DNA from: a virus
Length of the DNA: 64,000 nucleotides
IMG/VR virus record: IMGVR_UViG_3300017766_003987
Location: 43,267-107,266 of that record
Direction: 5' to 3' (one strand)
Shown: positions 1-57,534 of the stretch, one piece after another
How positions within the stretch are numbered: position 1 is the first letter of the stretch
Layout of the letters: the number at the start of each line of letters is the position of its first letter
The notes under the pieces: model-generated
What the model was told of the DNA's origin: nothing
Database searches by the model: none
Seen by the model: only the letters and a program-made list of their open reading frames with translations
Made by a program: the position numbers and the translations under genes

Positions 1-411
1 GTCGCAGCTGGGGCTGGCGTTCTGGTGACCGGTGTCTGTGAAGCTGACAACGCCAACTATCCAGATTGTCGCAAGGTCTTCATAGACTCTGCTTCTCAGA
101 CGATCAACATGGCGCTTGGCATCGACGCTTTCAGTATCGAGACCCCGCTCATGCGCCTGAGCAAGGCTGATACCGCCAAACTCGCATATGCGACGCCGGG
201 CACCTACGCGGCACTGAAATACTCGCATACCGCCTATGACGGCAAATATCCGCCGAACGGGCATGACCATGCGTCGATTCTTCGCGCACATGGGTTTGAG
301 CAGGCCGGCATGCCCGATCCTTTGGTCGTTCGTGCATGGCGTGAGGGCTTGATGGACTTGCCCACAACGTCGAACTACGACACGACCGCAAAGGGTTGGG
401 AACTTCTCTGA
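1..411 (+). CDS. queC: 7-cyano-7-deazaguanine synthase, C-terminal part (truncated by window edge)
   Basis: GVCEADNANYPDCR and TPLMRLSKA motifs typical of QueC; directly upstream of queD. The C-terminal Zn-Cys cluster appears replaced (SHTAY...HDHASILR). Confidence 0.85.
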   Translation, partial: VAAGAGVLVTGVCEADNANYPDCRKVFIDSASQTINMALGIDAFSIETPLMRLSKADTAKLAYATPGTYAALKYSHTAYDGKYPPNGHDHASILRAHGFEQAGMPDPLVVRAWREGLMDLPTTSNYDTTAKGWELL

Positions 412-860
412 TGACCTACCATTCCAGCAAAATGTATGGGCACGAGATCGGCTTATCTTGTGCCTTCCGGCAGTGGCGAGCGGTCGAGAGCCACTGTTCG
501 AAGCTTCACGGCTATGCCATCGCCGTCAAACTCGAGTTTGAGGCAGAAGCTCTCGATCATCGGAACTGGGTGATGGATTTCGGCGGCCTCAAGGCTGTCA
601 AGCAGTATCTCACCGATACTTTCGATCACAAGGTTCTGGTCGCCCACGACGATCCGGATCATGCTCTTTTCAATGACATGGAAGCAATAGGTATTGCCGA
701 CCTAACCCGGGTCGAGCATGTCGGCTGCGAAGCATTCGCCGAAATGATCTATCACTGGATCATTAATTGGATGTTTGTCAATAGTCTTGACAGCAGGGTG
801 CGTCTCACCCGTGTCACTGTCAGCGAACACGGCGCTAATTCCGCCGCTTATTCGGAGTAA
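411..860 (+). CDS. queD: 6-carboxytetrahydropterin synthase
   Basis: CSKLHGY, WVMDFGGLK, FDHK and SEHGANSA motifs; ATG at 411 overlaps the queC stop. Confidence 0.9.
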   Translation: MTYHSSKMYGHEIGLSCAFRQWRAVESHCSKLHGYAIAVKLEFEAEALDHRNWVMDFGGLKAVKQYLTDTFDHKVLVAHDDPDHALFNDMEAIGIADLTRVEHVGCEAFAEMIYHWIINWMFVNSLDSRVRLTRVTVSEHGANSAAYSE

Positions 861-866
861 CATCCT

Positions 867-1724
867 GTGGATGAGAAAACAATCACTGCGCTCGCCGCTA
901 AAGCGGACGCGCGAGTAAAAGCCATGTCGCCCGAAGATCTGGCCAAACTATGGGAAGAGCAGAAGCAAAGCGGGGTGAAGGGCGAAGCTGGTATAGGCAA
1001 CGACCGAGATGAAGTAGAAGTTCGGCAGCCGGTGAGCGAACGAGTTGATAGCAACGGAAGAAAGATTGCTTTCTTCAACGATGGGACGTTTATCAGGGAA
1101 GCTGATCAGACTCAACCCGAAAGAGTCGTTCCTGCGGTAACGCGGCGTCGTGTGGCATCTTCGTTTGAAACGACCATGTCGGACGGTTCTATTCGGCATG
1201 GTGACTGGCTTCAGACTTACACGGGCAAGGCATTCTTCCCGTTCGATCCTCGGCCCGAAGATATCGACATTGAGGATATTGCACATGCCCTCTCCCACCA
1301 ATGTCGCTATGGCGGGCATACCAGCCGTTTCTACTCGGTCGCTGAGCATTGCGTGATCCTCTCAACGAAAGTCGAACCGCAGTATGCCTTGGCGGCACTG
1401 ATGCACGATTGCGCCGAAGCGTACCTGGTCGACATTCCTCGCCCTGTGAAATACTCGCTTGTCGGGTATAAAGAACTCGAAGTTCTGGTCGAAAAAGCAA
1501 TCGCTGCGAAATTCAATTTGCAGTATCCTTGGCCTGAACAAGTCATGGCTTTCGATACCCGGATGATCCGCGACGAAGGTAACGAGCTCATGGGCGGCGG
1601 GGTCAACGACTGGAACAAATACGGCGAGACGCTCGACGCTCGCCCGTTTGGGGTGACCCCTATCGTCGCCAAGCAGGCATTCCTGCGCCGCTTTCACGAA
1701 CTACATCAAGAGGGAGCCATTTAA
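867..1724 (+). CDS. HD-domain 5'-deoxynucleotidase (YfdR/YfbR-like) with N-terminal extension
   Basis: IDIEDIAHALS..CRYGGH..YSVAEH..ALMHDCAEAY motifs. Confidence 0.8.
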   Translation: MDEKTITALAAKADARVKAMSPEDLAKLWEEQKQSGVKGEAGIGNDRDEVEVRQPVSERVDSNGRKIAFFNDGTFIREADQTQPERVVPAVTRRRVASSFETTMSDGSIRHGDWLQTYTGKAFFPFDPRPEDIDIEDIAHALSHQCRYGGHTSRFYSVAEHCVILSTKVEPQYALAALMHDCAEAYLVDIPRPVKYSLVGYKELEVLVEKAIAAKFNLQYPWPEQVMAFDTRMIRDEGNELMGGGVNDWNKYGETLDARPFGVTPIVAKQAFLRRFHELHQEGAI

Positions 1725-2293
1725 TGGCCATGTTGCGCGATTACCCCGTAGGCATCGAACAGGCCACTCGGCTTCTGCTTGACGAGATCGGCGAAGATAT
1801 TGATCGCCCCGGCTTGCTCGAGACGCCTGAGCGCGTCGCCAAAGCGTGGGCCGAATGGACTTCCGGTTACGACATGGACCCCAAAGAGGTCATCAAGATC
1901 TTCGAAGAGGGCGACTACAATGAGATGGTGATTGTCAAGAACATTCCCATCTATTCGAAGTGTGAACATCACCTTGCCGATATCTTCGGCACAGCTACAA
2001 TTGCCTACATTCCGCAGGGTAAGGTTCTCGGCTTATCAAAGCTTTCCCGTCTCGCCAACGTCTTCGCTCGCCGCCTCCAGGTTCAGGAACGCATGACAGT
2101 GCAGATTGCAGACGCTCTTTTCAAGAGTGACCTGGACCCGAAAGGCGTTGGCGTTCAGCTGCGTTGCCGACACATGTGCATGGAATCTCGAGGCACCAAC
2201 CAGCAGGGTCATCATACGGTGACAACTGCATTGCGTGGTGTTTTGTTTGCCGGCGAACCCCGCGCCGAATTCCTCGCCGCGGTTGGAGGGTAA
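1724..2293 (+). CDS. folE: GTP cyclohydrolase I
   Basis: GLLETPERVA, CEHHL, GLSKLSR, RRLQVQER and HMCMESRG motifs. Confidence 0.95.
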   Translation: MAMLRDYPVGIEQATRLLLDEIGEDIDRPGLLETPERVAKAWAEWTSGYDMDPKEVIKIFEEGDYNEMVIVKNIPIYSKCEHHLADIFGTATIAYIPQGKVLGLSKLSRLANVFARRLQVQERMTVQIADALFKSDLDPKGVGVQLRCRHMCMESRGTNQQGHHTVTTALRGVLFAGEPRAEFLAAVGG

Positions 2294-2294
2294 A

Positions 2295-2714
2295 ATGAAC
2301 CTAGCAATTCGCATTCTCGTCATTATGGCGCTTGGCGCCTGGACCATCTGGCCTGAGCCGTGGGGCTTCGGCATGTTCACGCTCGGCATGATCAGCGTTA
2401 ACCCCGTAGTAGGCCTGACAATGGCCATCCTGTGGACGATTGTCGTCTTCACTGTGCTGCCGCTCAAGCTTCGGCACTACAAGCTCGGAACTCAGATCGC
2501 ACTTGTCGCGATGATACTGGTCATGCACTATCAGGCATATGCGATGGGTTTCATTTCGCTAGCGAACTACGCGCCTTGGCTGATCTCGTTCGCCATGTCG
2601 GGAATTTTCGTTCTGGTGGCCTGGCCTATGATCGCCAATAGGCTCTGGCAGTGGACCCATTACCAGCGTGCCGTCGATCCGCAGACCGCGGATGTTAACG
2701 AGCACTCGCACTGA
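2295..2714 (+). CDS. membrane protein
   Basis: Four hydrophobic segments; GGAGG SD before ATG 2295. Confidence 0.65.
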   Translation: MNLAIRILVIMALGAWTIWPEPWGFGMFTLGMISVNPVVGLTMAILWTIVVFTVLPLKLRHYKLGTQIALVAMILVMHYQAYAMGFISLANYAPWLISFAMSGIFVLVAWPMIANRLWQWTHYQRAVDPQTADVNEHSH

Positions 2715-2751
2715 TCTGTAAAGATCGAGACGGCCCCCGGCGCGGAGTGAG

Positions 2752-3936
2752 ATGACGATGAAAGATTTTCTGATTTACGGCAAGCATGACGAAAACACGC
2801 TTGCGCAAATGACGACTTGCATGGCGTTTGACGACGCTGCGGCAGGCGTACTCTGTGCGGATGGGCATCTTGGTTATGCCCATCCCATCGGGGGTGTGGT
2901 CGGTTATACTGACCACATTAGCATTAGCGGTGTTGGTTTTGATATTGCTTGCGGCAACATGGCTGTGCGTCTTGACGCTCGCGCCGATGACATTCGTCCA
3001 CAGGTAGGGAAAATCTTGGCTGATATCGCAGCTGTTGTGAGCTTCGGCGTCGGTCGATCCAACGACGAGAAGGTCGATCACGATTTGTTCGATAGCCGGC
3101 TCTGGGAAGATGCCGGGGTGCCTGAACTGAAGACGATGGCTCGCAATCAGCTTGGGACCGTCGGATCAGGAAACCATTACGTCGATCTTTTCGAAGATGA
3201 TGCAGGGTTTGTCTGGATTGGCAACCATTTCGGATCGCGTGGCCTCGGACATAAAATCACGACCAAGTACCTGGAGCTTGCTGGGGCCAAAGACGGGATG
3301 CTCGTTCCTCCTGCGTTGGTTCCGGCAGACGACGATCTCGGACGCGGCTATATGGCGGGCGTTGAGCTGGGAGGTCTGTATGCTTACGCTGGTCGTGAGT
3401 GGGTGATTGAGCGCGTGCGCAAGATCATCGGCGGCAACGTCACGTTCTCGGTTCACAATCACCATAACTGGTGTTGGCGTGAAACCCATAACGGGATTGA
3501 CATGTGGGTTGTTCGAAAGGGTGCTACGCCGGCATTCCCCGGGCAATACGGCTTCGTCGGCGGATCGATGGGCGATGACGCGGTGATCCTTCGCGGTATT
3601 GATAGTCCGCTTTCGAAAGCTTCGCTCTATTCCACGGTTCACGGGGCGGGGCGTATCATGTCACGCACCGAGGCACGCGGTCGTTTCGTTCGAGATCCTA
3701 TTACCAAAAAGAAAGAGCGTCAACCCGGTCGAGTTCGTCATGACGAATGGCAGAACTGGATACGTGACAAGGGCGTTACGTTGATTGGAGCGGACTTGGA
3801 CGAGGCGCCCCAGGCATATCGTCGTCTTCCTGAGGTCCTTGCAGCTCATGCCGGCACGGTAGAGATCATGCATACTTTGCATCCGTTTGGGGTCATCATG
3901 GCCGGCGCAAACGAATTCGATCCTTACAAAGATTAA
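2752..3936 (+). CDS. rtcB: RtcB-family RNA ligase (2',3'-cyclic phosphate / 5'-OH)
   Basis: DGHLGY, GFDIACG, GSGNHY, HFGSRG, HNH, RKGAT, HGAGR and DEAPQAY motifs. Confidence 0.95.
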   Translation: MTMKDFLIYGKHDENTLAQMTTCMAFDDAAAGVLCADGHLGYAHPIGGVVGYTDHISISGVGFDIACGNMAVRLDARADDIRPQVGKILADIAAVVSFGVGRSNDEKVDHDLFDSRLWEDAGVPELKTMARNQLGTVGSGNHYVDLFEDDAGFVWIGNHFGSRGLGHKITTKYLELAGAKDGMLVPPALVPADDDLGRGYMAGVELGGLYAYAGREWVIERVRKIIGGNVTFSVHNHHNWCWRETHNGIDMWVVRKGATPAFPGQYGFVGGSMGDDAVILRGIDSPLSKASLYSTVHGAGRIMSRTEARGRFVRDPITKKKERQPGRVRHDEWQNWIRDKGVTLIGADLDEAPQAYRRLPEVLAAHAGTVEIMHTLHPFGVIMAGANEFDPYKD

Positions 3937-4259
3937 TGAGCCGTAAACCGGGTCTTATCAAACTGAGACTCCGCTTGCACCCGCACGCGGAGTTTCTTTT
4001 TGCTGAAATGGCCAACCAGCAATGCACCGCGCAACAGATGGCAGAGCGTTCAGGTGTCTCGAAAGCAACAATATTCAACTGGTCGCAGGGTAGATCCAAT
4101 CCCGGGATGATCGATCTGGAAGCTTGCCTCAACGTTTTAGGCTTTTCGCTTGTGATCCGCAAGCAGTTAACACAGCCCAGCAAACACCTTGCCACCCATC
4201 CACAGGGATGCGATTGTCGGCATTGCAAAACGCAGACAAAAGGAACTCCTGATGCGTGA
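3936..4259 (+). CDS. XRE-family HTH protein
   Basis: TAQQMAERSGVSKATIFNWSQGRSNP helix-turn-helix. Confidence 0.75.
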   Translation: MSRKPGLIKLRLRLHPHAEFLFAEMANQQCTAQQMAERSGVSKATIFNWSQGRSNPGMIDLEACLNVLGFSLVIRKQLTQPSKHLATHPQGCDCRHCKTQTKGTPDA

Positions 4260-4530
4260 TCCCAACGACGAACCGCACTTTTATCAGACGGGTGCACTTT
4301 CCGAAAAGAACATCGTCCTGCTCGCTGAGGCGTGCCGCGCCTATTCGCAGGTCGATGGCGTCGATCTCCAGAAGACAGACGACCTGATTGCTCTCGCCGA
4401 GCACTTCGAAGACGCAGAGGGCAACCTCATTCCTGTGGACGGGCCCGACACGGTCAATGCCGAGGAAGAAGGGCTCGAGATCGAAGACGAAGATGGCGAC
4501 GACGATCTCACCGAGGGTGACGACGACTAG
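4252..4530 (+). CDS. hypothetical protein with acidic C-terminus
   Basis: AAGGA SD; Asp/Glu-rich tail; followed by a terminator. Confidence 0.6.
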   Translation: MRDPNDEPHFYQTGALSEKNIVLLAEACRAYSQVDGVDLQKTDDLIALAEHFEDAEGNLIPVDGPDTVNAEEEGLEIEDEDGDDDLTEGDDD

Positions 4531-4554
4531 GCAATCGTCAAAGTCGCTTCTTCA

Positions 4555-4591
4555 GTTGTCCCACACTGCAAGGTGTGGGACAACTTGTTTT
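4555..4591 (+). terminator. intrinsic terminator
   Basis: GTTGTCCCACAC/GTGTGGGACAAC 12-bp stem followed by TTGTTTT. Confidence 0.75.
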
Positions 4592-4609
4592 CAATAGGAG
4601 CCCCATCGC

Positions 4610-4852
4610 ATGTCTGCTGATCATGACGCCGAAAAAGAACTAATCGCTTTGTCCAAGGATCAGCGCTTGTTCTTTGAAAAGCTGATGCCTGGGATGAAGC
4701 TTTACCCGTATCAGGAAGAGTTAATTTCTGCAATTCTGAACGGCAAAGTTACTCGGAAGCTTATAATGCATCGTCGGCCCATTGGCAAAACCCCGATGAT
4801 GCGAGCTGTTGAAAAATATCTCGAAGAGCATCCTAATGCCGACAAACAATAG
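4610..4852 (+). CDS. hypothetical protein
   Basis: AGGAG SD; tightly packed ORF. Confidence 0.55.
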   Translation: MSADHDAEKELIALSKDQRLFFEKLMPGMKLYPYQEELISAILNGKVTRKLIMHRRPIGKTPMMRAVEKYLEEHPNADKQ

Positions 4853-5015
4853 CTCCGAAGATGATTGGGAATTCGAAGAGGTCGTTCCTGACCAGTGGCG
4901 CTGCGAAGACTGCGGCCATGAGTTCACGAAGAAATGGCCTCCGAAGGGCGTCGAAGCGAAGCCTTGCAAATGCCCGAAATGTAAGTCATATTCAGCAGCG
5001 CCTGTGGGGAGATAG
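4836..5015 (+). CDS. small zinc-ribbon protein
   Basis: CEDC...CPKC motif. Confidence 0.55.
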   Translation: MPTNNSSEDDWEFEEVVPDQWRCEDCGHEFTKKWPPKGVEAKPCKCPKCKSYSAAPVGR

Positions 5016-5017
5016 AC

Positions 5018-5317
5018 ATGTCGGGATACCGTAAGAGTTGGGGTCAGGTAATGAACCGCCTTATTGAGATTCGGGGCAAGGAAAAGAACGAAGACTTCTT
5101 CCTTATCGAATGCAAGGGCGACCAAGTCACGTTTGAATACGTCCTTGAGTGCGAGATCAATACGTTGCCGACGGCTGAATTTGTCGACTTGCTTGAGCAG
5201 GCTGAAATTCTCTATTTGCCATCCCCTGAGCTTGCGCAGAAGATTACTTCGGATGGGATTACCGAGCTTTCGAAGCTGAAAGAAAAACTTGCCGCTCAAG
5301 GGATCATTGTTGAATGA
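5018..5317 (+). CDS. hypothetical protein
   Basis: GGAG SD; stop overlaps the next start. Confidence 0.55.
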   Translation: MSGYRKSWGQVMNRLIEIRGKEKNEDFFLIECKGDQVTFEYVLECEINTLPTAEFVDLLEQAEILYLPSPELAQKITSDGITELSKLKEKLAAQGIIVE

Positions 5318-5646
5318 GGATGTGGGATGTTCCGCCTGCGACAATGTGTCGGCAACATTTGCTCGGTGAGCATCTCGAGATGCACATGTTTGTAGGTGCT
5401 ATCGCCAAGGGCACGAGCATGTATGGCTATATCGAGAATGGACTTCTCGACGTGTCAAAGCTTCAATCTCGGCACGACGAGCTGGTCACCGAAATGACCA
5501 ATCGCGGCATGAAACACAAATCCCCGTTGCCTGAGATCCCCGAGCATCCGTGGCGTGCCGAAGCGATTGACGTTAATGTCAGTCTGCTCGAGCTCGCGCA
5601 TAGGTGCGCTGAGTGTCAGAAGCTACAGGACGCATATTACAAGTGA
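5314..5646 (+). CDS. pyrimidine-dimer DNA glycosylase / endonuclease V-like
   Basis: MRMW..P..MCRQHLLGEHLEMH and RHDELVTEMTNRGMKHKSPL motifs of DenV-like proteins. Confidence 0.8.
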   Translation: MRMWDVPPATMCRQHLLGEHLEMHMFVGAIAKGTSMYGYIENGLLDVSKLQSRHDELVTEMTNRGMKHKSPLPEIPEHPWRAEAIDVNVSLLELAHRCAECQKLQDAYYK

Positions 5647-5815
5647 AGTTTGTATATACGCCTACCGAGTTTTGTGAATATATAATCCGCAGTCGTCTTG
5701 AACCTGGAATCCCCTTAATAGTCGACCGGAGACCTCTCCCTTACACGACAGGGGAACCTAGCTGGGTTTACAGCAAGTGTCGAGAACGAAACCTAGAAAA
5801 GACGGTTGAGATAGA

Positions 5816-6718
5816 ATGAGGCTCTTTAACGCCGGTATCTATACGTCGAATTTTGACAAGCTGGGCACCGTGTATGCTAGACTCACGGACAGTGAGCGTG
5901 CAATGCGCGATAGCTGCGCCAACTTCCTCGAGTCTTATCATTACGTGCATTCGCAGCGATACGTTGACAAGATGCGCCGTGACGGTATCAAAGTTTTTCT
6001 CGATTCCGGGGCGTTCTCGGCTTTCTCACAGGGCATCTCGGTCGATATAAATGCATACTGCGATTACATCCACAGGAATGATGATATCATCGAATTTCCA
6101 TCTGTGCTTGACGCCATCGGTGATCCTGATGGAACCTGGCGCAACCAAGAAGAGATGGAACGACAAGGCACGCACCCCCTCCCCTGCTATCACTATGGCG
6201 AGCCGGTTGAAGTTTTGCAGTATTACATCTCAAAGTACGAATACATAACCATCGGTGGCATGGTGCCAATTTCGACTCCTCAGCTCAAGATTTGGCTTGA
6301 CCGAATTTGGGCGGAGTTCTTGACGCATGAAGACGGCACCCCAAAAGTTAAAGTGCATGGGTTTGGTTTGACTTCGCTCCCTCTTATGTTCAGGTACCCG
6401 TGGTATAGCGTGGATTCGTCAACATGGGTGCAGTGGGCGGCAAATGGCATGATCCTGATCCCCGGCAAGGCTGGGCAGGTTGACGTTTCGAACAAGTCGA
6501 GTCGTCGTAAACAGCGCGGCCAGCACATGGATAGCGTGGCGCCCCTCGAAACAGCCGCAATCGAGAACGAGATCCAAAGTTTCGGTGGTGACCCCGAACG
6601 CCTTCGCGATCTATACTATTCTCGTTGGGCCTGGAACGCATGGGCCTTCCCGACTTATGCTAAGGACAAGCACTGGGAGGGAGATAAATTTGAAACCATC
6701 GAACAACGCTTGTTTTGA
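5816..6718 (+). CDS. DpdA/TGT-like DNA deazaguanine transglycosylase
   Basis: FLDSGAFS, LDAIGD, HGFG and SVDSSTW motifs; queC/queD/folE nearby. Confidence 0.7.
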   Translation: MRLFNAGIYTSNFDKLGTVYARLTDSERAMRDSCANFLESYHYVHSQRYVDKMRRDGIKVFLDSGAFSAFSQGISVDINAYCDYIHRNDDIIEFPSVLDAIGDPDGTWRNQEEMERQGTHPLPCYHYGEPVEVLQYYISKYEYITIGGMVPISTPQLKIWLDRIWAEFLTHEDGTPKVKVHGFGLTSLPLMFRYPWYSVDSSTWVQWAANGMILIPGKAGQVDVSNKSSRRKQRGQHMDSVAPLETAAIENEIQSFGGDPERLRDLYYSRWAWNAWAFPTYAKDKHWEGDKFETIEQRLF

Positions 6719-6730
6719 AAGGACAAACGT

Positions 6731-7807
6731 ATGAACTTCCGCAACTCCCTGATGGCAATTGCACTTGCAGTCGCTGCATTCTCGGCTCCGGTATTTGCGC
6801 AGACCGCGCCGCCCGCCGCCGACGTAACCCTGAGCCTCACAGCGAACATGCCGAACCTCAAGGATGCCAAGGCACTCAACACTTTCTCCGGCAAGATCAT
6901 CGATGCGCAGCTTCGCGAGACGTCGATTCTGAAGTGCACGGCGGGTCGTTCGAAGTGGGCAGTGTTCCACGAGAACAAAACCTGCGCTTCTCAGCCGGGT
7001 TCGGGCACTGAATTGTTCATCGCCAAGACGAATACATGGGTCCCGCGCGTGCTTCTCGGTGGCTTCTACGAAGTTCAGGAGGATGGCACGACTGAAGGGT
7101 CCACCCTCGTCTATGACTATCAGGCGGTCGGTGCAGTTGCCCCGAGCAAGGGCGCGTTCGGCGGTTCGCTTCTGCTGAAGCCTGAGCTCGCTTCGACAGG
7201 TGCCAAGGGTCTGGTGGACGACGTCCTCGGCGGTCTGACAAAGCAGGCTGGTTCGGCGGTGATCAACAAGGAAACGGACACCATCACGTTCGCCAACTTT
7301 TGCCTGCCGTCGGCGGGTTACCCCTCCGATAAAGGGACTTGCTTCAACGGTGACGCGGTATATAGCTACCAGAATTATGCCTGGTTCTTCCGCGTCAATG
7401 CGAAGTTCAAGGATCAGGACATCCGTCTGGAAGGCAACATGCCCTTCACCACGCCAGCCATCCCCGAGAATGTCGACCCGAACAAGCCTGCTGTTACTGA
7501 ATACAATGTCAGTCTTCAGATCCCCGGCCAGGTTGCCGCCTCCACCACCACCGACGATGACGCTGCCCTCTTCGCAGAGTTCGATCCCGACGCCGGTCTG
7601 TCTGCCCTGCCGAACGGTATTTCCGGCAAGCTCACGATGAAGAACTCGGCTTACACCGAAGTCGCAATCGGTCAGGAAACCATCCTCGCAGCGACCGCGG
7701 TTCAGCTTGATGGCACGCTTCACGGTACGGGAATCCCTCTCGAGGTCGTTCGTGCCTTCGGCAAGCTGATTGTCGAGATTCTGCCTGAGACCTTCGTCGG
7801 TCCGTAA
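6731..7807 (+). CDS. secreted/periplasmic protein of unknown function
   Basis: Sec signal peptide (MNFRNSLMAIALAVAAFSAPVFA); strong SD; followed by a hairpin. Confidence 0.75.
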   Translation: MNFRNSLMAIALAVAAFSAPVFAQTAPPAADVTLSLTANMPNLKDAKALNTFSGKIIDAQLRETSILKCTAGRSKWAVFHENKTCASQPGSGTELFIAKTNTWVPRVLLGGFYEVQEDGTTEGSTLVYDYQAVGAVAPSKGAFGGSLLLKPELASTGAKGLVDDVLGGLTKQAGSAVINKETDTITFANFCLPSAGYPSDKGTCFNGDAVYSYQNYAWFFRVNAKFKDQDIRLEGNMPFTTPAIPENVDPNKPAVTEYNVSLQIPGQVAASTTTDDDAALFAEFDPDAGLSALPNGISGKLTMKNSAYTEVAIGQETILAATAVQLDGTLHGTGIPLEVVRAFGKLIVEILPETFVGP

Positions 7808-7817
7808 TCCTATCAAT

Positions 7818-7843
7818 ACACCCCGGCAATCGTGTCGGGGTGC
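7818..7843 (+). terminator. hairpin, possible terminator
   Basis: CACCCCGGCA/TGTCGGGGTG stem; weak U-tract. Confidence 0.45.
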
Positions 7844-7864
7844 AACTTCCAGAATTGCTTTATG

Positions 7865-7950
7865 GCTTAGTCGATACGGGGCAGGACCGTAGCCGTGACC
7901 GAAGAGGGAAACCTCCAAGTTAGGCATGTGGTGTAACACTTCGACTAAGC
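7865..7950 (+). ncRNA. 86-nt four-way-junction structured element upstream of pnuC
   Basis: Perfect 10-bp closing stem GCTTAGTCGA/TCGACTAAGC, three internal arms including GAGG-GAAA-CCTC, flanked by TTTATG direct repeats. Confidence 0.55.
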
Positions 7951-7989
7951 TTTATGGCAATTACGGTAATCAAAAGGAACCCCGTAAAA

Positions 7990-8847
7990 ATGAACTATAT
8001 CAAGCAGTTTCGCACGTTCTACTTTCCCGACCCCGGCACGATTACCTGGCGAGACTATCTCTGGCGCTCGTTCATAGTCGGCCTCTTTTTCACGAGCATT
8101 TCGTGGCTTGCAGTCAAGCTTTTCGGGGTCGATGCGTCGATGACGCCGCTCGAGATCGCCGCAGTGAGCACGAGTTTCGCTTGCACGTACCTGTGCAACA
8201 TCCAATCGCGCATGAACTACCCGCTGGGTATGATCACTACCGCGCTTTATGCTTGGCTCACGTTTGACGCCGGCCTGCTGGGTTCTGCCGCGCTGAACAT
8301 CTACCTTGTTCCTGTTCTCGCGTACGGTTGGTTCCGATGGGGCAAGGACAAATCGACCCGTCCTGTTGCCCATCTCAATGCGTGGTACATTCCGATCTAT
8401 CTCATCCTCACTGTCATTGTGTGGATCTTTTGCTCGGTAATTGTCACATCGCTTGGCGGACAACTCGGTCCGTGGGATACTGCTATTCTCGTTCTCAGCG
8501 TGCTAGCGCAGCTCCTGCTTGACAACAAGAAGCTGGAAACCTGGATCATCTGGGTTTTAGTCAATCTGGTTGCCCTTTACGTTTACTCGACGCAAGGCCT
8601 TTGGCTGGTTACCGCGCAGTACGTGTTCTTCTTGATCAACACCAGCATCGGCTGGATGGAATGGCGACGCATCTATGCGAAGAATAAAGCCAACGAGATC
8701 ATGCAACGAACCTTGCATGAAGGCACAACGCCCGAGTATGTGAAGGGCGATCTTTACTACCCTCAGACAACGGGTCGAGGGCTTCGCCGCACTCCCAAGG
8801 GTCCCCCGGACATTCGCGAGTGGGACGATAGCGATTACAGGGGCTGA
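7990..8847 (+). CDS. pnuC: nicotinamide riboside transporter
   Basis: Multi-pass membrane protein with LEIAAV, YGWFRW, AQLLLDNKKLETWIIW and GWMEW motifs; AAGGA SD before ATG 7990. Confidence 0.85.
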   Translation: MNYIKQFRTFYFPDPGTITWRDYLWRSFIVGLFFTSISWLAVKLFGVDASMTPLEIAAVSTSFACTYLCNIQSRMNYPLGMITTALYAWLTFDAGLLGSAALNIYLVPVLAYGWFRWGKDKSTRPVAHLNAWYIPIYLILTVIVWIFCSVIVTSLGGQLGPWDTAILVLSVLAQLLLDNKKLETWIIWVLVNLVALYVYSTQGLWLVTAQYVFFLINTSIGWMEWRRIYAKNKANEIMQRTLHEGTTPEYVKGDLYYPQTTGRGLRRTPKGPPDIREWDDSDYRG

Positions 8848-10918: not shown

Positions 10919-11164
10919 ATGCCTAAGATCCTTTTGCGCAATCAAGAGAATCGATACTTCATCACTGAAGTTGAATTCTGGCCCGCCGCGTGGAGTAGGG
11001 AAACCCCTCCCGTCGTGCGGGCCAATGTCTTTGGTAGGGTAGAATCCGTTTATTATCTTCGGACGGATGATTGGCTCGACGGAAAGCGTCTTTATGTTGA
11101 GGCGCCTGAACTAGGGGTAGCAATCCCTTACGAGTTGACAACCAAAGAAAGTCACGCAAAATGA
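10919..11164 (+). CDS. hypothetical protein
   Basis: GAGG SD; packed ORF. Confidence 0.5.
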   Translation: MPKILLRNQENRYFITEVEFWPAAWSRETPPVVRANVFGRVESVYYLRTDDWLDGKRLYVEAPELGVAIPYELTTKESHAK

Positions 11165-11622
11165 AGCAGATCAACACTCTGTCCCGAGAAGATCTCGCAA
11201 GGCTCAAAGACGAAGTCATGTTCGCAGGTCCGAATAATTCAATCGACCTGTATCAGTCCGTTGCGACGAAGTCGGCAATATACCCCGGGCATGGAACGCC
11301 GTTTGGGCTCGCCTATGTCGCCCTCAAGGGGGCTGGTGAAGCCGGGGAATTCGCCGAGCACGTCGGCAAGGCAATGCGTGACGATGATCTGGTCACAATC
11401 GGAACAGAACGGGGCGACGGTTTGCACGACGTTTTGTTCCAGGAGATTACTCCCGAGCGCAAAGCTCTATTGATCAAGGAAATTGGCGATCAGCTTTGGT
11501 ATCTAGCCGCCAAGTGCAACGAGCTTGGGGTTCTGCTCAGCGACGTAGCAGTCATCAATATCGAAAAGTTACTCGACAGAACCGAACGAAACGCCTTGCA
11601 AGGCTCAGGCGATACGCGTTAA
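11161..11622 (+). CDS. MazG-like nucleotide pyrophosphohydrolase
   Basis: GEAGEFAE..K, KEIGDQLWY and NIEKL..R...LQGSGDTR motifs. Confidence 0.85.
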   Translation: MKQINTLSREDLARLKDEVMFAGPNNSIDLYQSVATKSAIYPGHGTPFGLAYVALKGAGEAGEFAEHVGKAMRDDDLVTIGTERGDGLHDVLFQEITPERKALLIKEIGDQLWYLAAKCNELGVLLSDVAVINIEKLLDRTERNALQGSGDTR

Positions 11623-11765
11623 TGTAATGTCGTTCTGAGCAAGGGTCTTTCGTTTCGACTCGGTTGTGTTGTGCTTTGCTTAGCGTTGATGGGTATTTCC
11701 GCGATCAACTCCAGTCCCGTCGCCGGATCAATTCCCCCGAATGTTCGGCGACGGGATAACTTAAA

Positions 11766-11824
11766 GTGTCACTGAAGAGTCCTGATGGGACGAAATCACA
11801 AGGGAGAGCTTTGTGATCTGGCAC
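11766..11824 (+). ncRNA. type I hammerhead ribozyme (predicted cleavage after C11818, AUC)
   Basis: Stem I GUGUCA/UGGCAC; core CUGAAGA; stem II GUCC/GGAC; GAAA; stem III AUCACAAGG/CUUUGUGAU; then C17. Confidence 0.88.
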
Positions 11825-11830
11825 GTACAA

Positions 11831-12004
11831 GAGGAACGTTTAAGAGCGATATGGGCTTGACCGGCAATAGCTTACCGGTGACAACATAATGACCCAAAAG
11901 GATCTTGAGTAGGTATCGCTAGCCTCATTTGGGAGCTGATGATCCGGCTTAACAGCTCGATTTGACTTCTCAGGCGGGATGGTTGCAAACGCCCGCAAGT
12001 CCTC
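11831..12004 (+). ncRNA. structured RNA downstream of the hammerhead
   Basis: AGCGAUA/UAUCGCU, ACCGG/CCGGU, GAGCUG/CAGCUC and GCGGG/CCCGC stems plus crossing pairings; no convincing ORF. Confidence 0.5.
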
Positions 12005-12030
12005 ACTCCTATCTTCCACAGGAAGTTATC

Positions 12031-12264
12031 ATGGCTATCAAGCAAGCGCCTCCGTCTGCACTCATCGGGGTTGAAGCGGTCAACGCTGAAACGGGGCGAG
12101 AAGTGACTCCTTTGACTTTGACATTCACGTTACGACAGTGGCGTCTGCTTGCGGTTGCGGCAGGCCGCGTTAGCGCGTCAGTTTTCATCGAATCCAAAGA
12201 TGCGGCTGAAGTCAAGGCAATCGCCAAGCTGATTGCTGAACAAACCGGCAAAGAACCCGCATGA
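12031..12264 (+). CDS. hypothetical protein
   Basis: AGGA SD before ATG 12031. Confidence 0.55.
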   Translation: MAIKQAPPSALIGVEAVNAETGREVTPLTLTFTLRQWRLLAVAAGRVSASVFIESKDAAEVKAIAKLIAEQTGKEPA

Positions 12265-12521: not shown

Positions 12522-12672
12522 TCGAACGCGAGAAAGAATTTCTTCTTGAGCTCGCCGAAAAGATCGAACGTCTCCCTACCATTTTCGGGGAGGATGAGGT
12601 AAAGCGGCTGCGCGAGATTGCTGACATGTTCACGATCCGCGGTAAGCGACAGCAGGAAAAAGGCCTTCTTTG

Positions 12673-13647
12673 ATGCTTGACGCACTTCGTTTCGTTGCAT
12701 CCGCCGTTGCGAAGAAAGACTACGTCCCAGCTCTCACACACTACAAGATCACTAACGGTAAGGTGATGGGCTTTAATGGGATCATCGCCCTGTCATCTGA
12801 GATTGACGTTGATCTGGAGGTGATGCCGAGCGCAGCGAAATTCCTCGCCGCAATCAAGGCGTGCCCTGACACCATTGCGCTCAACGTAACCCCATCTGGG
12901 AAGCTCGCTGTCAAGTCCGGCAAATTTAAATCGTTCGTTGATTGCCTTCCCATGGACACAGCGGTCACTTTCCTTGAACCTGAAGGCGAGGAAGTTGACT
13001 TGGGACCGAGCTTTCTCAAGGGCATCAAGCTGCTTGAGCCTGCGATGGGCATCGACGCATCCCGCCAATGGGCAATGGGGATTAAGCTTCGCGGCAAGTC
13101 AATGTTCGCGACTAACAACATCATGTTAGTCGAATACTATCACGGGACGCACATTCCAATGGACGTGGTGATACCTGACCTGGCCATTAGGGAGTTGGTT
13201 CGTATCAACGAAGTTCCTACGCGTGTCCAAGTTTCTGAAAAGTCGATCTCATTCTGGTTCGGTGAGAAGCGTTGGTTGCGCACGAACCTGCTTGAAGGTG
13301 GAAAGTGGCCGACGGACAAACTCACGCAGATTCTGTCAGCGTCAACCGGTGAGCAGGTGCCTTTCCCTGATGGGTTCGCAGAGAACCTTGAAATTATCAA
13401 ACCGTTCTTGGGCGATAACGGCACTATCTTTCTTACGCCTAAGGCGATGATGACCTCTCAGTACGACGGCGAGGGAACGACGCTCGAGATTGAAATGCCG
13501 CAGATCACCGAGATGCAGGCATATCATCATAAACAGCTTGTGCTGCTGGCCGAGATGGCAGCGACTATCGATTGGACAGGCTATCCGCGTCCGTGCATGT
13601 TTCAAGGGAAGATGCTTCGCGGCGCACTTGTTGGACAGAGGGTGTAA
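12673..13647 (+). CDS. DNA polymerase III beta-clamp-like sliding clamp
   Basis: LDALRFVASAVAKKDYVPALTH N-terminus; ~325 aa; adjacent to the polymerase. Confidence 0.75.
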   Translation: MLDALRFVASAVAKKDYVPALTHYKITNGKVMGFNGIIALSSEIDVDLEVMPSAAKFLAAIKACPDTIALNVTPSGKLAVKSGKFKSFVDCLPMDTAVTFLEPEGEEVDLGPSFLKGIKLLEPAMGIDASRQWAMGIKLRGKSMFATNNIMLVEYYHGTHIPMDVVIPDLAIRELVRINEVPTRVQVSEKSISFWFGEKRWLRTNLLEGGKWPTDKLTQILSASTGEQVPFPDGFAENLEIIKPFLGDNGTIFLTPKAMMTSQYDGEGTTLEIEMPQITEMQAYHHKQLVLLAEMAATIDWTGYPRPCMFQGKMLRGALVGQRV

Positions 13648-15936
13648 ATGTCACGTTGGGACCTGACAGGTATCTTCTGGGACGACTATGTCGAGCCCCG
13701 TGCGCCGGCGATAAAGGAAAAGCGTCTGCCGCCTGACCCCGTCTGGCTCAAAGACGACTATTTGCCCGGGCTCGCCGAAGCACTTTCGTATCAGTTCAAT
13801 CATATGTCTGATGCTGAAATTGTGACAGAAGCCAAAGAGAAGAATCGTCTCGTTTGGGATACGGAAGAATATCCGAACTATTCCTTGATCGGTTTCAAGT
13901 CGGTCAAGAGTGGCAAGCATATCGTAATGGAGGCTAACGACGGGCAGCCATTCAACGAAATTGATCGAGCCAAGCTTCAGTGGATTCTAAGGAACTACTG
14001 CGTTGTCGGTTTCAATGACGAAGCATTCGATATCCCGGTCACAATGTACGCGCTGAACGGGGCAACGACGAACCAGCTTTCAGACGCAGCCCAAGATATC
14101 ATTGCCGGCGGACCTTTGTTTCAGGGTTTGACGCCGCGTGACTTCTATGCCAAATACCGGATCAGCGCCTTTCCAGTCGATCATATCGATCTGATCCAAC
14201 TAACGCCCCTCGGTCCGGGCTTGAAAGTTTGCGCCGGTCGTATGCACTCGAAATGGATGGCTGATCTACCGTTCATTCCAGGCAAGCTACTCACTGCTGA
14301 CCAAAAGTTAATCCTTCGCAGGTATTGGGCGAACGACTTGGATAACACCGAGTTGCTGTTGGGCAAGCATAAGGTCGCACTCGAGCTGCGTGAACTGCTG
14401 ACTAAGGATTACGGCGTTGACGTTCGATCCAAGTCTGATCCGCAAATCGCAGAGGCAGTGCTTCGATCCGAAGTCAAGAAGTTAACAGGCCGCAAGCGCA
14501 TTGACAAAGCGGTCATTCGCGCCGGCGAGTATTTCTATTTCGTTCCGCCTGCATATACTGCCTACAAGTCGGAAACAATGAAATGGGTACTTGACTTCAT
14601 CAAACGGCAGAAGTTCTATATTGATGAAGGCGGTTCGCCCGTCATGCCAATCGAGCTGGAAGGACTTGATATTGAAATCGCTGGTAACATCTACCGTATG
14701 GGTATCGGCGGACTTCACTCACAAGAAAAGTGTTCAATCCACCACAGTGATGATGACTTCGAGCTTTCGGACAACGACGTTACTTCGTACTATCCGAACC
14801 TCATCATCCAGCAGAACATGTACCCGCCTCACGTGGGACCCGCTTTCCTCACTTCTTTTAGCGGCATCGTAACTCGACGCATAACGGCCAAGCGCGCTGG
14901 CGACAAGGGGACCGCGGAAACGCTGAAGATTGTCGCTAACGGCACGTTCGGTAAGACCGGCGAGCGAGGCGGGCATTCGGTCGTCTATTACCCTGAGATG
15001 ATGATCCAGACGACGGTGAGCGGGCAACTGTCCCTACTCATGCTGATCGAGATGCTCGAGCTGGTCAACATTCATGTAGTGAGTGCGAATACCGACGGTA
15101 TCATGATCAAGTGCCCCAGGCACCTATTGGACGTCAAAGCGCAGATCATTGCCGATTGGCAGACTGCAACGGGACTCGAGCTCGAAAGCAAAGGATACAA
15201 AGCCGTCTACTCGCGTGACGTTAACAACTACATCGCTTTGCTCGAGAAGCCGGACACGAAAGAAACCGGCCCTTGGCAGTATGCTAAGGCGGTCGGTGCG
15301 TATCGCAAAACGATTGACGTGTATCCACTCAAGTGGAACCCTACGTGCGAAATCTGCAACGAAGCGGTCATTATGTATCTCGCAAAGGGCGTTCCCTTGA
15401 TCGAGACCATTCGAGCTTGCGACGATGTACGCAAGCTGATAGAAGTGCGCCGTGTGAGCGGTGGGGCATGCAAGGGCGGCGAGTATTTGGGCAAGGTCAT
15501 TCGCTGGTATTACGGCGTTGACGTTAAAGACGAGATCATCAACGCGAAGAACGGTAATCACATTCCGCGGTCTAAAGGCGCTGTCCCCTGCATGACCTTG
15601 CCGGATGACATTCCTGTGGACGTAGATTGGGACTACTATGTCACGCGCGCTCAAAAGATGATCGATGACTTCTATCCGAAAGTCAAGGTTGCCAAAGTCA
15701 AGGCGAATGCTGCGCCAATCGTCCCGGCCACTCCCGAGCAGGTCGAATGGCTCAAGCAGCATGATTGGGAACCTCTTTGGGATGACAACAATTGGATCAA
15801 AGTCGAATGGCGTGCAAACCCCAGGATCGACATTGACAAAGCTGGCGTACCTTTCCATGTCGCGTGGGCGAGCGCAACTAACGGCAAAAATGTTCTTGGT
15901 AAAGTTGAAGACGAAGAAGAGGCGACCACAGAATGA
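13648..15936 (+). CDS. family B DNA polymerase
   Basis: Exonuclease WDTE; polymerase motifs DVTSYYP, KIVANGTFGK and SANTDG. Confidence 0.9.
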   Translation: MSRWDLTGIFWDDYVEPRAPAIKEKRLPPDPVWLKDDYLPGLAEALSYQFNHMSDAEIVTEAKEKNRLVWDTEEYPNYSLIGFKSVKSGKHIVMEANDGQPFNEIDRAKLQWILRNYCVVGFNDEAFDIPVTMYALNGATTNQLSDAAQDIIAGGPLFQGLTPRDFYAKYRISAFPVDHIDLIQLTPLGPGLKVCAGRMHSKWMADLPFIPGKLLTADQKLILRRYWANDLDNTELLLGKHKVALELRELLTKDYGVDVRSKSDPQIAEAVLRSEVKKLTGRKRIDKAVIRAGEYFYFVPPAYTAYKSETMKWVLDFIKRQKFYIDEGGSPVMPIELEGLDIEIAGNIYRMGIGGLHSQEKCSIHHSDDDFELSDNDVTSYYPNLIIQQNMYPPHVGPAFLTSFSGIVTRRITAKRAGDKGTAETLKIVANGTFGKTGERGGHSVVYYPEMMIQTTVSGQLSLLMLIEMLELVNIHVVSANTDGIMIKCPRHLLDVKAQIIADWQTATGLELESKGYKAVYSRDVNNYIALLEKPDTKETGPWQYAKAVGAYRKTIDVYPLKWNPTCEICNEAVIMYLAKGVPLIETIRACDDVRKLIEVRRVSGGACKGGEYLGKVIRWYYGVDVKDEIINAKNGNHIPRSKGAVPCMTLPDDIPVDVDWDYYVTRAQKMIDDFYPKVKVAKVKANAAPIVPATPEQVEWLKQHDWEPLWDDNNWIKVEWRANPRIDIDKAGVPFHVAWASATNGKNVLGKVEDEEEATTE

Positions 15937-36037: not shown

Positions 36038-37522
36038 CTAGTGGAATGAGGCCGCAAACCATCTAAGGCCAGTCGCACGAGTAGATGTTCCAGTGGAACT
36101 AGCAGTATTGGTTTCGGCTCGGACAAGTTTAGTGGTTCCATCGGTTTTTGAATTAGCACACCAGTAAGCAAGAGAAATACCTTCTGGAAAATCCATATTC
36201 TGAAATCCTTGCACGATATTAGTTAGGCCTGAAAAATCTCGATCCATAGCAAAACCAATCGCCCAACCGTCAGCTACAGTAACCAGTGAGGAGCCGACTG
36301 TGGTTCCGTAAACGGTCTGTGAGCTAATTGTTGCATCGGGAACCGTCGGAGCGACTAAGTTGTAGCCTGCCCAGAGTGCAATTGCAATGCTACTGTAACC
36401 TGAGTTACTGGTAGAAACAACTACCGTTACGCTTGTTCCTGTCGGAACAGCAGCCACCCAAATTCCCCCGTCTACTTCAGGTGCTGAGCGATTAGCTGTG
36501 ACCAAAGGCGTTGCGGTTACACCTCCTATAGTGACACCTGTAATTGTAGTTGAACCTGAGCCTAAATTGTTAGTTGCACCAACTGCTGCGTAAATATATC
36601 GAGTAGGATGCTCGAGTAGAACGTCAAACACACGGCTGGTCGTAGCACCGTCTGTGTCCATTCCGAGATAGAGTATTACTTTGTTGTCAGTAACACTGTT
36701 TACAGGAGTGTTCAAAGTAGCTACAGGAATGATTCTCAAATCAAGTGAATAAACTGAGCTGTAATCGGTAGTATCAGTCAAACTACAAGCATTAGACTGC
36801 CCTCGTTGCATATCGGCACCCGTGCCGGGCGTAAAACTCGGGCCTTTAGTATCAAGCTGCGCAACAATATGCCCGTAGGCTCCTGCTGTTCCGCCGTAAG
36901 TCCATCCTGAGTTAGTTGGATCATTACCACCTCGCCAATAGGTGTAGAGCGTAGTAATCACACTTTGACGACGCTCAAGCACAATGTCTCGAGACCCGTC
37001 GCCATTATACACGGGATCTCCGCTTGCGTCGGTTCTCAAGCGAACGTCGATCTGACGGCTCAGGGGCCACAAAAACTCTAAGGGTAGAGATCCTCCTGCA
37101 CATACTGTCCAATCACCGGATGAAGGCAAAACCGGGATTGTATTGCCATTGATCTGACTAGGGTTAGTAGTCCTCGTTACTTTCGCTAGTACGTATAGAG
37201 AATCGACTCCCGAAGGTACCGTTCCTAGTACGCTTTCCGCAAGCGTTCGCCCAGAATCAGGATTAGATACGCTCGGACCCCACTCTTGAGGGCCAAGCGT
37301 TAGAAAACTCATACAGCTACGGTAGAGGTCAGCGCCAATAGTGCCTCTAGCGTAAGCGTATGAGTCACCTTTCATTAAATCCGGAAAAGTAACAGTTGTC
37401 GATACAATGATTTCTTCGCCTGAAGGGGCGAGCTGAAGCGGTGCCAAGTCGCTGTCAAAAACAACAACGCTGTCCTCTAAGAACCGCATTCTATCAGGGA
37501 GAGTCTCAAATTTAACAGTCAT
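36038..37522 (-). CDS. tail / receptor-binding protein
   Basis: Thr/Ser/Gly-rich; C-terminal domain resembles that of 32214-33929. Confidence 0.6.
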   Translation of the reverse strand: MTVKFETLPDRMRFLEDSVVVFDSDLAPLQLAPSGEEIIVSTTVTFPDLMKGDSYAYARGTIGADLYRSCMSFLTLGPQEWGPSVSNPDSGRTLAESVLGTVPSGVDSLYVLAKVTRTTNPSQINGNTIPVLPSSGDWTVCAGGSLPLEFLWPLSRQIDVRLRTDASGDPVYNGDGSRDIVLERRQSVITTLYTYWRGGNDPTNSGWTYGGTAGAYGHIVAQLDTKGPSFTPGTGADMQRGQSNACSLTDTTDYSSVYSLDLRIIPVATLNTPVNSVTDNKVILYLGMDTDGATTSRVFDVLLEHPTRYIYAAVGATNNLGSGSTTITGVTIGGVTATPLVTANRSAPEVDGGIWVAAVPTGTSVTVVVSTSNSGYSSIAIALWAGYNLVAPTVPDATISSQTVYGTTVGSSLVTVADGWAIGFAMDRDFSGLTNIVQGFQNMDFPEGISLAYWCANSKTDGTTKLVRAETNTASSTGTSTRATGLRWFAASFH

Positions 37523-57473: not shown

Positions 57474-57509
57474 AAAAATGGGCGGGGGACTCGAAAGTCT
57501 CCCCGCCCA
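57474..57509 (-). terminator. intrinsic terminator after the capsid gene
   Basis: TGGGCGGGG/CCCCGCCCA stem plus U5. Confidence 0.8.
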
Positions 57510-57534
57510 CTCGCTTCCGACTGCCCGTCGAAAC

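Follow-up and report, generated by a model that had tools for sequence, protein, structure and literature searches.

A predicted type I hammerhead ribozyme between mazG and the replication genes of a large uncultured phage

Introduction

Does the non-coding stretch between the mazG-like gene and the replication genes of the virus IMGVR_UViG_3300017766_003987 (a 107-kb IMG/VR record, rated complete by CheckV) encode a genuine self-cleaving ribozyme, and would such a ribozyme still cut the message in which it lies? A preliminary description of the locus had proposed a type I hammerhead at this place. Cleavage by gene-flanking hammerheads of phages and prophages has been observed both in vitro and in E. 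coli cells (PMC3088659). In this study the proposed ribozyme, its flanking genes and its possible partners were analyzed in the window, i.e., a continuous 64-kb stretch of the viral genome, to which all positions refer unless another record is named.

Architecture of the motif

The whole type I hammerhead extends over positions 11766-11824 (+ strand), and its core and three helices can be read from the sequence. The 5′ strand of stem I, GUGUCA (11766-11771, with A11771 as position 2.1), pairs with the 3′ strand UGGCAC (11819-11824) in all folds and in the descriptor match introduced below. It is followed by the catalytic core segment C3-A9, CUGAAGA (11772-11778), in which N7 is an A and G11774 equals G5, so that the preliminary description had rightly named this residue as part of the core. 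Stem II was identified by folding as the hairpin GUCCU-GAU-GGGAC (11779-11791), consisting of GUCC/GGAC plus a U.G pair and the loop GAU; its strands (11779-11783 and 11787-11791) close the core with the pair G10.1-C11.1. The second core segment, G12 A13 A14 (GAA, 11792-11794), was like the first assigned by sequence and by alignment to the covariance models RF00163 and R1. Stem III, also found by folding, is the 9-bp hairpin AUCACAAGG-GAGAG-CUUUGUGAU (11795-11817) with the loop GAGAG, in which 11795-11803 pair with 11809-11817, beginning with A15.1-U16.1 and continuing with a U-A pair at 15.2-16.2. According to the hammerhead consensus, cleavage is predicted between C17 (11818) and U1.1 (11819), with AUC as the cleavage triplet.

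Stems I, II and III comprise 6 (one of them G.U), 5 and 9 bp, i.e., 20 pairs in total, and the pairs adjacent to the core are all formed (A11771-U11819 at 2.1-1.1, G11779-C11791 at 10.1-11.1 and A11795-U11817 at 15.1-16.1). All invariant nucleotides of hammerheads are present, namely CUGAAGA, GAA, the A15.1-U16.1 pair and C17, which is a permitted H at position 17. With an open stem I and loop-closed stems II and III, the topology is that of type I. Perreault et al. (2011; PMC3088659) accepted hammerheads which have three helices and no mispair beside the core, and both apply to 11766-11824.

The purine-rich apex of stem III, GGGAGAG (11800-11815, +), recurs at the corresponding apex in two further phage hammerheads, L069:1163-1221(-) and L117:1102-1162(-). 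In the phage studied here it is located 4 nt ahead of a GUG which opens a 15-codon ORF across the cleavage site, an arrangement that is probably a coincidence.

Folding and expectation by chance

Free folding with ViennaRNA returned the three-way junction as minimum free energy (MFE) and centroid structure in contexts of 59, 85 and 410 nt, the last one covering the whole spacer, and the folding energy of the 59-nt motif was −19.7 kcal/mol (z = −2.2). Pairing probabilities amounted to 0.88-0.99 for stem II in local contexts and to about 0.96 for stem III in nearly all contexts. Of the three helices, stem I is the weakest, with pairing probabilities between 0.08 and 0.95 for different lengths of folded upstream sequence, and competing pairings challenge it in some of the longer contexts. 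Reading of the sequence, free folding and the descriptor scan agree on a complete core with all three stems paired, which confirms this part of the preliminary description; the assignment to type I holds as well, with regard to core, A15.1-U16.1 pair, C17 and topology.

The hammerhead consensus is short, and a chance match to it, without any biological role, has to be considered. A descriptor consisting of CUGANGA, a hairpin, GAA, a second hairpin opening with A and closing with U, H17 and stem I found exactly one site in the whole window, both strands included. In 300 dinucleotide-preserving shuffles the same descriptor yielded two minimal matches and none of equal quality, while the best chance motif among 1,400 further shuffles contained 15 paired bases as opposed to 20 here; none of the 1,700 shuffles came close. 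The tail of the chance distribution about halves with every extra pair, from which 1e-5 to 1e-4 motifs of this quality per 64-kb window can be extrapolated. Applied to about 250,000 windows these odds would still produce a few such motifs, and the RF00163 score below the cut-off as well as the missing conservation of the copy (both discussed below) also fit with a chance match. Yet, the motif is located in a 408-nt spacer that accounts for 0.6% of the window, and there on the sense strand, as is typical of real phage hammerheads (PMC3088659). As this strand of the spacer represents only ~0.3% of all strand-positions, the chance is lowered ~300-fold further. Moreover, phage contigs abundantly carry such hammerheads (the pattern of core and stem II matches at least 120 IMG/VR contigs). 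A chance match is thus very improbable, and judged by sequence and predicted fold the motif at 11766-11824 looks like a genuine type I hammerhead in origin and structure, beyond what chance would provide.

Covariance models

The search with Rfam hammerhead models, which the preliminary description had named as a check, gave a mixed outcome. At gathering thresholds, no ribozyme was reported at the site by Rfam. In a relaxed search Hammerhead_1 (RF00163) aligned to the motif from end to end (E = 3e-5 for the 107-kb genome), with a score of 25.4 bits that stays below the gathering score of 34 bits. This shortfall says little, because clean phage type I copies score similarly: all seven others that were tested, including the tandem cluster of four type I hammerheads on L043, reached 22-30 bits and hence also remained under the cut-off. 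Furthermore, the RF00163 model gives no reward to a long stem III. As the Hammerhead_1 cut-off missed seven of seven phage type I hammerheads, routine annotation under-counts copies of this kind.

A second model, R1, for which 80 other phage type I hammerheads were aligned, scored the site with 44.4 bits and had no other match in the window; this score is partly circular, as the training sequences were chosen by the same stem II pattern as the copy that was scored.

A better match to RAGATH-1 (RF03152), another hammerhead family of type I, was considered and rejected. The motif shares with it a 5′ hairpin and an ~8-nt A/U-rich linker, and the alignment spans 11730-11823. However, the score was 27 bits compared to a cut-off of 56.3, only a small sub-part of the upstream hairpin was aligned to the hairpin of the model, and stem II, which is nearly absent in the model, has a normal length of 4-5 bp here.

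Comparison with phage type I hammerheads

For comparison, IMG/VR was searched with the pattern CUGANGAGUCC-N3-8-GGACGAAA, which covers core and stem II and matches at least 120 contigs. The 132 matches listed comprise 99 complete type I hammerheads (88 of them unique), 28 of type III and five that are neither. With respect to the unique type I copies among these matches, a 6-bp stem I (53 of 88), an A-U pair at 2.1-1.1 (43 of 88) and C17 (74 of 88) are the most common states, and all three of them are present at 11766-11824. Likewise, the 4-5 bp of stem II at 11779-11791 correspond to the modal arm length among the matches listed. The motif has rare features, too: among the matches listed, N7 is an A in only four of the 88 other type I copies, a U at 15.2 was found in five of 88, and a stem III of 9 bp is rare as compared to the class mode of 5-6 bp. 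Across the class, stems I and III covary heavily; this covariation does not bear on the copy studied here, because pairing was a criterion in choosing the sequences, which are not orthologues.

In short, the motif has the catalytic core and topology of the phage and prophage type I hammerheads (RF00163, clan CL00010; PMC3088659) and shares with them a stem I of 6 bp that includes A2.1-U1.1, the GUCC/GGAC pairing of stem II and C17, but differs in its 9-bp stem III, N7 = A and the U-A pair at 15.2-16.2, and in that no loop II pseudoknot was detected.

Its location is likewise typical in some respects and unusual in others. Like its phage counterparts it is intergenic, lies on the sense strand and would presumably process a polycistronic message, and ~58% of the phage hammerheads among the matches listed overlap no ORF of at least 80 aa. 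Many of them directly adjoin a gene, with a ribosome binding site (RBS) and start codon within 40 nt downstream in 27 of 74 cases and a stop codon within 10 nt upstream in 34 of 82 (among the matches listed). The hammerhead at 11766-11824, with gaps of 138 nt upstream and 206 nt downstream, is within the range of the class and abuts neither gene. Unlike other phage hammerheads, it occupies a central place in a spacer of 408 nt, with an unusually strong hairpin ahead of it and the start codon 212 nt away. It also differs from the gene-flanking clusters of phage hammerheads in being a single copy. One such cluster is found at L043:2403-3883, where four type I hammerheads occur within 1.5 kb, each directly ahead of a small gene. 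On another contig, L074, a sub-threshold match to twister-P1 (46 bits) lies 2.2 kb upstream of a hammerhead (L074:3788-3842 and 6020-6078).

Stem I extension and tertiary contacts

According to the preliminary description, stem I would extend past a bulge through CUUAAA/UUUAAG, as in natural hammerheads with loop-bulge tertiary contacts. The two segments (11760-11765 and 11839-11844) are indeed perfectly complementary over 6 bp. However, a helix of equal length between the flanks was obtained in 33% of the shuffles (p = 0.33), and the pairing probability of the extension in the ensemble was about 0. Nor does the class show such an extension: 4.79 flank pairs were observed compared to 4.72 after shuffling (among the matches listed). 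Being at chance level and lacking folding support, the extension was excluded from the motif. The proposed loop-bulge contact is not supported either: loop II shows no Watson-Crick complementarity of 3 nt or more to either flank, a test to which non-canonical contacts are invisible. A pseudoknot between loop II and the 3′ flank was described for phage hammerheads in 2011 (PMC3088659), and complementary runs of 4-5 nt between these elements occur in 33 of 88 other class members among the matches listed. As neither a pseudoknot nor a supported extension of stem I was found, fast cleavage at cellular Mg2+ is not assured, although activity under these conditions is plausible.

It could therefore be asked whether the motif is of genuine origin but slow or inactive by now, having been acquired recently or being in decay, with little effect at cellular Mg2+. 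The missing loop II complementarity and stem I extension, the rare A at N7 and U-A at 15.2-16.2, and the distance of 212 nt to the start codon, which does not place the ribozyme directly ahead of an RBS, would all fit this explanation, as would its occurrence as a singleton that is not conserved in relatives; slow phage variants are also on record (Perreault et al., 2011; PMC3088659). In a decaying relic, on the other hand, intact core nucleotides together with 20 intact pairs would not be expected, stem I (6 bp) and stem II (4-5 bp) have the modal lengths of the class, and tertiary contacts of non-Watson-Crick type would escape the complementarity test. A slow or inactive hammerhead is hence considered unlikely, and a ribozyme that still cleaves is the preferred reading.

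The spacer and its flanking genes

The ribozyme lies in a non-coding spacer of 408 nt (11623-12030, +), which occurs once in the genome. None of its ORFs on either strand matched a PHROG family, and no similar DNA was found in 50,697 phage records. The upstream neighbor is a MazG-like pyrophosphatase gene (11161-11622, +; Pfam PF03819, PHROG 229). Downstream, an ORFan of 77 aa (12031-12264, +) with an AGGAAG RBS 6 nt before its ATG is followed by a gene for an 86-aa protein (+), and then by the clamp (12670-13647, +) and DNA polymerase genes (13648-15936, +). The ORFan has no Pfam or PHROG match, and among 5.8 billion proteins it matched only itself. The identities on both sides, assigned with Pfam and PHROG, corroborate the intergenic position between mazG and the replication genes that had been claimed for the ribozyme. 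All genes flanking it are encoded on the + strand and thus co-oriented with the motif.

Within the spacer, neither a sigma-70-type promoter nor an intrinsic terminator was found, which fits with read-through transcription. A repeated promoter-like motif was considered and dismissed, as the spacer shares four 12-mers with the rest of the window where about three are expected by chance. The 13-mer CTTCCACAGGAAG occurs twice, at 12013-12025 (+) and at 49017-49029 (+); the copy at 12013 folds into a hairpin of 5 bp which includes the AGGAAG of the ORFan and may thereby sequester this RBS.

A very stable hairpin (11714-11757, +) was identified by folding 8 nt before stem I. Its perfect, GC-rich arms of 10 bp are not followed by a U-tract, its folding energy is −29.7 kcal/mol (z = −5.9), and none of 200 shuffles folded equally well. 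Among the matches listed, it is the strongest upstream structure of 86 phage hammerhead loci, eight of which have a z below −3 upstream and none downstream. A similar layout of hairpin and subsequent ribozyme was seen at two other loci, L073 and L112, and is found in a minority of phage hammerheads. The hairpin could act as a folding insulator, as an RNase III-type site or as an inverted repeat to which a protein binds.

The 212 nt past the predicted cut (leader, 11819-12030) are, in contrast, no more structured than their shuffles (z = +1.2), and they resemble neither the flanks of ~120 other hammerhead loci nor deposited phages. A conserved non-coding RNA behind the hammerhead was rejected on these grounds, with only the ribozyme itself matching other hammerhead loci.

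Upstream of the spacer the genes are arranged in the order QueD-like, GTP cyclohydrolase, RtcB, repressor-like HTH, TGT/DpdA-like, PnuC, NadR-like and MazG. The region 396-8847 (+) includes three genes of the 7-deazaguanine pathway (QueD-like, GTP cyclohydrolase I and TGT/DpdA-like) and in addition genes for a dNMP phosphatase, RtcB, an endonuclease V-like protein, PnuC and a NadR-like protein, all co-oriented with the ribozyme. It is a rich block of auxiliary and anti-defence-type genes.

With respect to the host, sub-threshold matches to two Bradyrhizobiaceae sRNAs were observed, BjrC68 at L158:16834-16910 (genome positions 36834-36910; 31 bits, E = 3e-4) and BjrC80 at window positions 57474-57613, and the best match of MazG among deposited phages is from a Rhizobium phage. 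These sequence matches hint at a host from the Rhizobiales; the host is probably an alphaproteobacterium.

Search for relatives and further ribozymes

No hammerhead or other Rfam ribozyme was found at 27 viral and 29-37 metagenomic MazG loci, at one clamp locus or at four DNA polymerase loci, and five related whole phage records likewise contained neither a hammerhead nor another known ribozyme. These relatives are rather distant, with identities of 65% or less for MazG, 63% for the clamp and 58-65% for the polymerase, and the closest relative in clamp and polymerase has other genes upstream and lacks the spacer. Exact copies of the segment from core through stem II to GAAA were absent from viral contigs, and a search of 185,579 species genomes which permitted any base at N7 yielded no copy either. 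As neither a relative with the ribozyme nor a copy elsewhere was found, the ribozyme appears to be specific to this lineage. Covariation can provide no evidence for this copy, as the ribozyme is missing from the relatives and the gene that follows it has no homologue; selection on it would accordingly show only in the intact core and the 20 intact pairs, as read from the sequence.

A second known ribozyme was detected neither in the window nor in the other 43 kb, which makes the hammerhead the sole one in the 107-kb genome.

A possible partnership with RtcB

The phage carries a full-length RtcB gene (2752-3936, +) on the same strand, ~8 kb upstream of the ribozyme. RtcB joins 2′,3′-cyclic phosphate to 5′-OH ends, and hammerhead products are among its substrates (PMC8782182). 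Chemically, the predicted ends would thus suit a reversible switch in which the hammerhead cuts and the phage RtcB reseals, or a ligation to another partner or to the product itself. Several observations argue against such a partnership. RtcB was found in only three of 50 other hammerhead-bearing phage records, each of them a large genome (113-347 kb); when only records with a completeness of 90% or more are counted, it occurs in two of 20. With one ribozyme in the 107-kb genome, there is no segment between two cuts that could be circularized, and spliced or circular products were sought for phage hammerheads without any being found (Perreault et al., 2011; PMC3088659). One of the RtcB-bearing records, G006, is of similar size (113 kb) and contains no match to the DNA polymerase or the MazG of this phage. 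The RtcB enzymes of phages are generally taken to repair tRNAs, and at least five tRNA genes are present in this phage. RtcB would here serve in tRNA repair, with a function independent of the hammerhead, and a partnership of the two is hardly probable. An association of RtcB with hammerheads as a general rule was dismissed with only three of 50 records in its favor; RtcB does not accompany hammerheads in phages.

A broader variant would unite the hammerhead, the hairpin at 11714-11757 and RtcB in one regulated unit, in which cleavage is slow or conditional and can be reversed by RtcB. Slow or conditional cleavage would follow from the missing built-in tertiary contact and from a stem I that is weak and open to competition. 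If true, the phage would tune the coupling of its replication-gene expression to the transcript of the upstream auxiliary genes. This combination, too, is regarded as quite improbable.

Proposed role in transcript processing

Taken from sequence and modeled structure, the motif is most likely a working cis-cleaving type I hammerhead which would cut a read-through transcript after C11818. The + strand message would reach the replication genes from those for auxiliary functions and nucleotide metabolism (queuosine-type, RtcB, PnuC, NadR-like and MazG). After stems II and III have folded, and as soon as the polymerase has set free the 3′ strand of stem I, the 2′-OH of C11818 would attack its own 3′ phosphate. 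The upstream product would carry a 2′,3′-cyclic phosphate and, near this 3′ end, the two ribozyme hairpins together with the hairpin 11714-11757, while the downstream product would begin with a 5′-OH at U11819 and comprise the 212-nt leader, the ORFan and the clamp and DNA polymerase genes. In this way the cut would separate the fates of the mazG-side and the replication-side halves of the polycistronic transcript. Such a role presupposes that transcription reads through, that cleavage inside the cell is fast enough to be useful and that it alters mRNA stability or expression; an influence of the new ends on RNA decay would be expected from what is known about ends of this type.

By analogy, the most likely role is the cutting of transcripts, matching what was proposed for phage and prophage hammerheads (PMC3088659). 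A particularly close counterpart is HHphage of the haloviruses HF1 and HF2, which precedes an early helicase gene, so that both ribozymes head a transcript of replication genes. In HF2 the 5′ end of a transcript was mapped within three nucleotides of the hammerhead cleavage site (PMC3088659). HHphage is, however, a variant in its core, needs high salt and is located 13 nt before the start codon (PMC3088659), whereas the core of the hammerhead described here is canonical and its leader is long.

Phage hammerheads of this kind have been known since 2011, and neither the under-counting by the Rfam cut-off nor the missing link between RtcB and hammerheads alters the picture of that time. What the locus adds is a clean hammerhead at the boundary between auxiliary metabolism and replication modules of a large uncultured phage. 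Since the copy stands alone and the messages on both sides of it are defined, it offers a simple case for studying a possible effect of hammerhead cleavage on mRNA stability.
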